In this document: in pieces, positions 23,991 to 25,077 of the stretch | How the letters are laid out: the number at the start of each line of letters is the position of its first letter | How positions within the stretch are numbered: position 1 is the stretch's first letter | Assembly: GCA_035996875.1 (NCBI GenBank) | Contig: DASYJD010000023.1 | Span: 14,293-78,292 of the forward strand | Source of the DNA: Thermoanaerobaculia bacterium | GTDB lineage: Bacteria; Acidobacteriota; Thermoanaerobaculia; Multivoradales; UBA5704 | DNA length: 64,000 nt | Direction of reading: 5' to 3' | The notes under the pieces: model-generated | Told to the model about the DNA's origin: nothing | The model's database searches: none | Seen by the model: the letters and a program-made list of their open reading frames with translations, nothing else | Program-made: the position numbers and the translations under genes

Positions 23991-24425
23991 ATGCCCAGAA
24001 CATTCACCCCGAGTCCTGCGAGGCGGATTCCGGACGGAGAGCGGGAGCTTCCCGTCGTCCTGACGCCGAACGGCGAGCCGGTCCGCCTCGGGCTGGCCGC
24101 GACACAGCCTGGAAACCGGCGGCGTGCGAAGAATGCTTTTCAGCTTTCAGACCCAGAGTATGACCGGAGGCTCGCAATCGCACGAATTCGCGCCCAGAAG
24201 GACTTTCGCATGGGCGTCCTCGGCGCCGATGCGGAGGACTCGGTCATCACCCGGGACCGCGCGATTCAGGAGATCGAGCAGGACACAGAGATTGGAAGGC
24301 AGCTCGTGCGGATGGAGATCTTCACGGCGAAGAGATACTTCGAGGCAGCCATAGGAGCTGTTCGCGACGATGCCCAAGTCGACGCTGTAAGACCCCGTCG
24401 AAGTGCCGGCCTCCGAAAAGGCTGA
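23991..24425 (+). CDS. hypothetical protein (upstream partner of a minimal CHAT-like protein)
   Basis: 144-aa ORF after a 440-bp lower-GC intergenic region. No recognisable motifs. Overlaps the next ORF by 23 nt (or a 20-nt gap if the next gene starts at 24445). Confidence 0.4.
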   Translation: MPRTFTPSPARRIPDGERELPVVLTPNGEPVRLGLAATQPGNRRRAKNAFQLSDPEYDRRLAIARIRAQKDFRMGVLGADAEDSVITRDRAIQEIEQDTEIGRQLVRMEIFTAKRYFEAAIGAVRDDAQVDAVRPRRSAGLRKG

Positions 24426-24444
24426 GACTCCCTCTCCCCTGATC

Positions 24445-25077
24445 ATGACAGACCAGATTGTGGCCGCAGCAGCGGATAGCGACAGCATTGTCCGCACGGG
24501 AGCTGCCTACCGTAGGAAGATCCTTTACCCGCTGCTTCGCAGGTGTGGTTTCCGCGTCTGCGTCCTCGCGGGTGAAGAAGCCCGGAAGCAACAGGTGGAC
24601 GAGGCCATGAAGAAGCCTGAAGTCCGGCTGTTTACCGGCCTTGGCCATGGGAACGCCGAAGAGTTCACCGGTCAGGACCAGCTGCCGCTCTATTCAGCCG
24701 ATGAAGCCGGAACAGCGGTAGGAATCAAGGGACGGATCTTCCATCTCTGTTCCTGTAGCACCGCAAGAAGGCTCGGACCGGCATTGTTGGAGGCCGGAGC
24801 CAGCGCGTTTTTCGGGTATGCCACTCCCGTCCTCGTGAATTTCGACCAGCCCCGTTGGCTCTATGATGCCGACTCCGAGATCGACATCGCTCTCGCCTCT
24901 GGAGCGACCTGTGCCGAAGCGTTGGCGAGATCAAAGGCTGCGTTCGAGCAAGCGATTCACGAAGCTGAGGCAAATGACAGTCCACTCGGCGTCAGAGCAT
25001 TGTTTGCCGCGCGAGTGGGTCTTCGCGGCCCAAATGCTCTCGAACCGAACTGGGGCGATCCTGACGCTACGCTCTGA
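24445..25077 (+). CDS. minimal CHAT/caspase-like (clan CD peptidase-like) domain protein; track ORF starts at 24403
   Basis: Hydrophobic strand-His-Gly (VRLFTGLGHGN) followed ~45 aa later by hydrophobic strand-Cys (GRIFHLCSCSTAR), then LLEAGASAFFGYATPV. Mirrors CHAT/caspase dyad geometry (HfaGHG ... lvvLsAC.t ... LlaGa.svvasLW.V). Confidence 0.45.
   Translation: MTDQIVAAAADSDSIVRTGAAYRRKILYPLLRRCGFRVCVLAGEEARKQQVDEAMKKPEVRLFTGLGHGNAEEFTGQDQLPLYSADEAGTAVGIKGRIFHLCSCSTARRLGPALLEAGASAFFGYATPVLVNFDQPRWLYDADSEIDIALASGATCAEALARSKAAFEQAIHEAEANDSPLGVRALFAARVGLRGPNALEPNWGDPDATL

Follow-up and report, generated by a model that had tools for sequence, protein, structure and literature searches.

How is a caspase-fold protease held in check when its gene encodes little beyond the catalytic domain? 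This question is raised by two adjacent genes, here called A and B, in a 64,000-nucleotide (nt) stretch of DNA (the window) from a Thermoanaerobaculia bacterium (Acidobacteriota; GenBank assembly GCA_035996875.1, contig DASYJD010000023.1, positions 14,293 to 78,292 of the forward strand). B is a bare catalytic domain with neither a sensor domain nor a signal peptide, and its predicted structure together with sequence comparison identifies it as a new sequence family within the known clan CD fold, outside every described sequence family. Judged from comparison with its relatives, the pair A-B is a real, conserved two-part protease module and not a local accident. With moderate confidence, we read A-B as a two-part cytoplasmic protease in which B would be kept latent by A, acting like a prodomain or an antitoxin, with a basic P1 residue as the probable cleavage preference. 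The genes and residues that carry this argument are the following (coordinates of the window; aa, amino acids):

23991..24425, + strand: gene A, 144 aa, partner domain of protease B
24445..25077, + strand: gene B, 210 aa from its ATG, predicted minimal clan CD (caspase/gingipain/CHAT-fold) cysteine peptidase of a new sequence family
24646..24648, + strand: codon of His68, the predicted catalytic histidine, which lies in G-H-G where strand 60-66 ends
24742..24744, + strand: codon of the invariant His100, four residues before Cys104
24754..24756, + strand: codon of Cys104, after strand 98-102, the predicted catalytic cysteine

We searched B and alignments of its relatives against Pfam, NCBIfam, PADLOC and PHROGs without obtaining a meaningful match, and a search of PDB sequences with single sequences and profiles returned no match. 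Neither the window's B nor any of 27 diverse members reached the gathering score of the CHAT domain (PF12770), and B matched neither the Peptidase_C25 profile, its likeness to gingipains being structural only, nor the Peptidase_C14 profile of caspases, metacaspases and orthocaspases. Even at E <= 10, none of the 27 (B and 26 relatives) matched the Pfam CHAT, C25, C14, C11 or C13 profiles. An initial annotation, made from the sequence alone, had described B as a minimal CHAT/caspase-like protein and had named the lack of any such profile match as grounds for giving up that call. Membership in the CHAT family falls on this result; the lack of a match formally counts against the call as a whole, but it is overruled by the fold match and the conservation of the catalytic dyad.

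The AlphaFold2 (AF2) model of B, built with an 11-sequence alignment as input, reached a predicted local distance difference test score (pLDDT) of 93.9 and a predicted template modelling score (pTM) of 0.91. A Foldseek search with this model returned SAVED-CHAT first (E = 2e-6), then caspase-11/4 (about 1e-5) and the gingipain RgpB (7e-5). The secondary-structure elements of B follow the order of the caspase topology, an alpha/beta fold with a parallel sheet and flanking helices, and in the model His68 comes after the strand at residues 60-66 and Cys104 after the strand at residues 98-102. Clan CD is defined by a catalytic histidine at the C-terminal end of the third strand, followed by the cysteine at that of the fourth (PMC4357240). 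An hhalign comparison of B with the genome's own CHAT protein placed GHG on GHG and HLxsC on LNAC, a weak alignment with a probability of 19%. By structure, B lies about equally distant from the gingipains (C25) and from CHAT.

The conservation pattern agreed with the modelled active site. B contains the motifs G67-H68-G69, H100-L-C-S-C104 and LLEAGASAFFGYATPV (residues 113-128), and residues G67, H68, G69, H100, C104, L110, G118, A121, G124 and Y125 were invariant among 36 diverse B sequences. Among 156 representatives of 50%-identity clusters, H68 was kept in 153 of the 155 comparable sequences, while C104 and H100 were each present in 156/156. These alignments indicate that the His-Cys dyad of B is intact and conserved, and the non-conservation that would have spoken against the initial annotation was not observed. 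That annotation had also placed the open reading frame (ORF) at 24445..25077 correctly, with about 210 aa, a His-Gly...Cys arrangement and an LLxAGAxxFxGxxxPV segment, and its description of a minimal protein without a sensor domain was borne out by the caspase-fold (clan CD) model and the conserved dyad. We also observed a conserved C-terminal tail in B, P-x(3-5)-[KR]-[WFY]-G-[DN]-x-x-A-x-L (window residues 193-210; 25021..25074). A link between this tail motif and the presence of A was considered and rejected, as proteins of LamG-TM-B type (TM, transmembrane) keep the motif without A.

The extent of the B family was assessed with a HMMER scan of the full set of 1.84 billion representatives, in which the cluster count fell from 1,737 with a cutoff of E <= 1e-3 to 779 with 1e-10 and 128 with 1e-30. 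The family is entirely unannotated yet occurs with moderate frequency in soil metagenomes, with about 780 clusters of 50% identity, and it comes close to the smallest possible caspase-fold enzyme. A protein identical to B is listed at NCBI as hypothetical, from a Thermoanaerobaculia (Acidobacteriota) metagenome-assembled genome. Most members stand alone with 205-235 aa, and these stand-alone members have no signal peptide. Fusion architectures were read among the best 150 matches of the scan; besides fusions with A, they included two PPC pre-peptidase domains, a SPOR domain, a metallo-beta-lactamase domain together with A, and a type in which a Laminin_G_3 domain, an Ig-like region and hydrophobic segments (read from the sequences) precede B. 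PPC is the bacterial pre-peptidase C-terminal domain, and its fusion to some B proteins is indirect evidence for the peptidase nature of B. The fusions to SPOR or PPC (P0060, P0097, P0138 and P0130) involve domains that are normally extracytoplasmic, yet these proteins have no signal peptide. A search of plasmids for B gave no match, nor did a search of IMG/VR. A B homologue of 248 aa was found in an archaeal virus (BK063666.1, locus L044, Caudoviricetes sp. vir519, host Methanofastidiosa; 4762-5705), with GHG and the cysteine kept and a C-terminal hydrophobic tail resembling a membrane anchor; the ORF before it, which overlaps it and has 66 aa, bears the C-terminal motif of A. In addition, another B protein (loci L003-L008 and L033) occurred in identical form on 24 contigs. 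Six of these, L003-L008, came from different soil samples, measured 3.6-4.0 kb each and carried a called gene of 798 aa (family C, described below; 821-aa ORF) upstream of B and no A; their similar extents suggest repeats or strain variation at both flanks.

Both genes of the module are real genes under purifying selection. Compared with three relatives of 69-80% protein identity, dN/dS was 0.16-0.21 for B and 0.20-0.32 for A, and 0.22 for residues 1-73 of A. NCBI annotates A as a protein of only 71 aa (VGS07_05910), comprising residues 74-144 and starting at Met74. The N-terminal half that this call omits is conserved residue by residue in close relatives and lies inside the span covered by the A family profile. 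Together with its dN/dS of 0.22 and the Shine-Dalgarno sequence GGAGG at 23980-23984, this conservation shows that the 144-aa reading is right, which corrects the public gene call. The initial annotation had given the same length for A but had described A and B as overlapping; an overlap arises only if B starts at the alternative GTG at 24403, which would make it 224 aa. Because the homologues of B begin in the alignment at the position of the conserved ATG (24445), A and B are separated by 19 nt without overlap. The region upstream of A contains the following features:

23555..23990, no strand: intergenic spacer of 436 bp with a GC content of 0.51-0.56, between a divergent FG-GAP gene and gene A
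23935..23964, + strand: sigma-70-like promoter match CTGGCA-18-TATACT, a consensus match only, with 1 found against 0.2 expected
23980..23984, + strand: Shine-Dalgarno sequence GGAGG, 6 nt 5' of the gene A ATG, a direct sequence reading

The spacer had been described beforehand as a low-GC region of about 440 bp, and its length and low GC content against about 0.66 around it agreed with this description. It is presumably the regulatory region of the A-B operon. An Rfam scan of the A-B region and the spacer found no RNA family, and no terminator-like site was found in the A-B region.

Protein A has a mostly helical core (residues about 16-120) and short basic tails. Searches with A and alignments of its relatives found no family in Pfam, NCBIfam, PADLOC or PHROGs and no known fold, and neither effector features (membrane segments, nuclease fold, sigma fold) nor a DNA-binding fold were recognised. 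The analysis defines a profile family for A and one for B, both of which could join domain databases. We examined 37 loci around B homologues, iterating a profile of A over all their ORFs, and counted pairing in the 28 non-redundant loci whose sequence extends 400 nt or more upstream of B. The results revealed an A-like domain of about 105 aa in 24 of these 28 loci, so the pairing with an upstream partner, for which a check of neighbourhood conservation had been proposed, is conserved. In 22 of the 24, A lies directly adjacent to B on the same strand, at -26 to +56 nt from the A stop to the start of the B domain; of the remaining loci, one is split by an insertion sequence (IS) element and one is fused. 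The A of the window matched the A profile with E = 1e-34 at its 19-nt distance from B. Identity of B to the window protein was often only 25-35% in these loci. Conversely, every A homologue whose neighbourhood was examined adjoins B. Representative fusion proteins comprised twelve with A before B and two with B before A, and the linker in A-B fusions is about 35-40 residues. Adjacency across such wide divergence and fusions in both orders argue for a physical and functional partnership of A and B.

Several single observations concern this pairing. In the IS-bearing case (L038 10732-12191 / L039 2733-4192), the element (DDE_Tnp_ISAZ013 and a 249-aa gene) lies between A and B, which are 2 kb apart. 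A 468-aa B-to-A fusion (L035 1643-4092) is immediately followed by a radical SAM/SPASM gene, a hint that the module of this lineage may be tied to peptide modification. One B-to-A fusion protein carries a signal peptide. A cleavage site in A at 'IEQD' was considered and rejected; its Asp is replaced by Gly in the closest relatives, and in other sequences the position varies freely.

Prokaryotic caspase-fold proteases are now central to bacterial immunity and regulated cell death. To our knowledge, every characterised member depends for its activation on attached sensor domains or on proteases acting upstream of it. As B has no sensor or regulatory domain, its control must lie in A or in expression. 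We propose that B is an active clan CD cysteine endopeptidase cut down to its catalytic domain, and that A, made from the same transcript just before B and fused to it in other lineages, would bind B and keep it latent, either like a prodomain acting in trans or as an inhibitor of antitoxin type that may in turn be cleaved. Removal of A, or a cut at its basic tail or linker, would free B to act on its target proteins, with Arg or Lys as the probable P1 residue; the pair may also process itself where A and B join. A latent enzyme held by a subunit fits these data because the partner is small, upstream, tightly coupled and sometimes linker-fused. What this model would add to the observed fold, dyad, selection and gene arrangement is catalysis by B, binding of A to B, a direction of regulation, a preference at P1 and a set of cellular targets. 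A precedent for the inhibitor form is PCaspase, whose small co-encoded inhibitor PCi is also cleaved by it (bioRxiv 10.1101/2023.06.23.546230). If A is an inhibitor or a trans prodomain, A-B would offer a simple model of caspase-fold latency, and a compact, possibly Arg/Lys-specific protease-inhibitor pair for protein engineering.

The proposed preference for basic residues, in a clan whose peptidases have strict P1 specificity, draws on three kinds of evidence. Gingipains R and K are Arg- and Lys-specific, respectively. In caspases, Arg residues in the corresponding L1 and L5 loops bind Asp (PMC4357240). In the B family, the loop that follows strand 1 is acidic (D/E) at two positions in about 90% of members, and D143 and D147 are conserved after strand 5. 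Many A proteins have K/R-rich tails, and the A C-termini and fusion linkers end in R/K just before strand 1 of B. Because acidic residues occupy the L1/L5 positions, the nearest structures include Arg/Lys-specific enzymes, and the tails and linkers are rich in R/K, B would probably cut after Arg or Lys.

Several points weigh against the latent-protease model. The structures of A and B were each predicted as single chains, and A-B binding goes a step beyond them. Four B lineages lack A, two of which have the exported family C upstream and two of which are LamG-TM-B fusions, and fusions in both orders are unusual for a classical N-terminal prodomain. Clan CD also contains transamidases and ligases, and this breadth counts against taking B as an endopeptidase; the invariant His100 could point to a different chemistry. 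The argument for a basic P1 is built on loop positions taken from the alignment and secondary structure, and the first acidic loop position is Ala in the window's own B clade.

We then compared A-B with known systems. The gingipains RgpB and Kgp (MEROPS C25, clan CD) share 13-14% identity with B, which lacks a Peptidase_C25 match, and are about twice its size in the catalytic region. They are exported by type IX secretion and carry Ig-like and C-terminal sorting domains, whereas B is cytoplasmic and minimal, and their prodomain is unrelated to A. CHAT proteases (PF12770: SAVED-CHAT, Craspase TPR-CHAT/Csx29, DdvA) resemble B in having the same fold and similar GHG and xxxC motifs, and they are likewise prokaryotic and cytoplasmic, being regulated enzymes with substrates encoded nearby. 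However, they carry activating sensor or scaffold domains (SAVED, TPR, anti-sigma) that B does not have, no A-type partner is known from CHAT systems, and B has no PF12770 match. It is very improbable that B is a diverged CHAT-family protease that has lost its sensor domains: the shared fold and motifs stand on one side of that idea, and the missing profile match and the equal nearness to gingipains on the other. The nearest functional analogy to the proposed A-B system is PCaspase/PCi of the Haliangium type III-B CRISPR locus, a caspase-fold protease with a small, co-encoded and cleaved inhibitor. PCaspase, a C14 protein, is turned on by another protease as part of a CRISPR signalling cascade, whereas A-B stands alone and is widespread; PCi, predicted to be CI-2-like, lacks homologues elsewhere. 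Separase (C50, clan CD) is eukaryotic and very large, with a helical scaffold, and its disordered partner securin bears no relation to A. Type II toxin-antitoxin pairs share the gene layout of A-B, with a small upstream gene tightly coupled to a small downstream enzyme; we know of no type II toxin with a caspase fold.

Three other roles were weighed against the latent-protease model. A might be the substrate of B, a pro-protein cut to release an active fragment and not a regulator. Bacterial gasdermins, Csx30 and anti-sigma factors are cleaved by neighbouring caspase-like proteases, and prokaryotic proteases of this kind often adjoin their substrate, as in Craspase. PCaspase cleaves both PCi and a sigma factor (bioRxiv 10.1101/2023.06.23.546230), A is always found with B, and its basic, probably disordered tails would be accessible to a protease. 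However, a sensor-less B leaves nothing to time the cleavage, the residue before the conserved S/T-x-x-G turn varies freely and no conserved candidate cleavage position exists, A has no recognisable effector features, and permanent A-B fusions are easier to read as an enzyme with a regulatory domain; we therefore consider a substrate role for A unlikely. A similarly low probability is assigned to an anti-phage abortive-infection or toxin-antitoxin module, with B as the toxin and A as a labile antitoxin lost on infection or stress; a defence role had been suggested by the initial annotation. The layout is that of a type II toxin-antitoxin pair, the genomic context varies among relatives, one copy has an IS insertion, an archaeal virus carries a copy, the GC content is slightly below that of the flanks, and HEC-01 and MNT/HepT genes lie 3-10 kb away at one locus. 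Against this, A, B and 9 of 10 tested neighbours from other loci had no PADLOC match (PADLOC-DB 2.0), PHROG, plasmid and IMG/VR searches gave no matches, the neighbours are mostly housekeeping or exported proteins, and among Thermoanaerobaculia the module appears to be inherited vertically, its downstream synteny being conserved. The genomic context does not support a defence role for A-B, with a defence candidate a few kb away at only one locus. An autonomous protease-based module, in which a caspase-fold killing or dormancy effector would be checked only by a partner of new fold, is correspondingly doubtful; if true, it would represent a minimal sensor-less caspase switch that is widespread in soil bacteria and present in an archaeal virus.

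A role in the envelope, in which A-B would process, mature or regulate co-operonic exported or outer-membrane proteins, possibly as a transpeptidase, appears remote. It would account for three unrelated signal-peptide families that occur in separate clades directly upstream of A-B or of B, with genes that overlap A-B or B or lie within about 30 nt:

L038 8467-10011 and L040 3362-4633: family X1, upstream of A-B
L013 3043-4524 and L030 1385-2695: family X2, upstream of A-B
L024 1800-4049, L003 482-2947 and L036 5692-7915: family C, upstream of A-B, and of B alone in L003 and L036

Exported proteins also flank the module on both sides in L045, B is fused to SPOR or PPC in some proteins, the B-to-A protein mentioned above has a signal peptide, and clan CD is known to include sortase-like and transamidase enzymes. 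However, nearly all members of A and B lack a signal peptide and would thus occupy another compartment than mature exported proteins, the three families share only export, and X1, X2 and C are absent from the window. In a tblastn search of the window with X1, X2, C and other neighbour families, all were absent apart from one marginal match; this match, of the 346-aa downstream neighbour in L024 to 44923-45105 (61 residues, E = 0.003), was taken as chance.

Within the window, the neighbours of A-B have the appearance of housekeeping genes; they encode the divergent exported FG-GAP repeat protein, an aldo/keto reductase, a DUF2089 regulator and a TauE exporter. The region is rich in GC, and its long antisense ORFs, such as those at 20532..23477 (minus strand) and 21956..23737 (plus strand), were rejected as non-coding shadows of the FG-GAP gene. 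A 794-aa ORF without a Pfam match lies on the minus strand at 27625..30009, 2.5 kb downstream of the module; a hydrophobic stretch in the N-terminal region of its translation suggests that the product may be exported.

The window start carries a separate, ordinary CHAT-TPR protein, accompanied by the following genes:

1..869, + strand: 3' part (final 289 codons) of the CHAT-TPR gene, which encodes 596 aa and extends past the window start; not part of A-B
890..1738, + strand: low-GC gene directly after the CHAT-TPR gene, encoding a 282-aa protein with two hydrophobic stretches in the translation and only weak Pfam matches to TM families
1813..2430, + strand: Polbeta/MNT-type nucleotidyltransferase (Pfam E = 5.8e-17)
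2561..2830 and 2834..3307, - strand: HicB/RHH-like gene followed by a PIN_3 gene, a VapBC-like toxin-antitoxin pair

Within the window, the match of the ORF at 15..869 to Pfam CHAT covers only the final 56 profile positions and, with E = 6.7e-5, falls slightly short of the gathering score; the ORF also matched TPR_16. Contig L043, 100% identical over an overlap of 2409 nt, supplied the whole 596-aa gene, which matched CHAT with E = 8e-28 and also TPR_16, and which lies after a ClpB-type gene fragment. This upstream extension confirmed the earlier assignment of 1..869 as CHAT-TPR, and the low-GC gene with two hydrophobic stretches and the MNT-like nucleotidyltransferase said to follow it were both found. 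A functional link between the CHAT-TPR gene and A-B was rejected, as the two are 23 kb apart with unrelated genes between them and no relatives have both together. With its HicB/PIN_3 pair adjoining the MNT-type nucleotidyltransferase, the window start resembles a small toxin-antitoxin/CHAT cluster.
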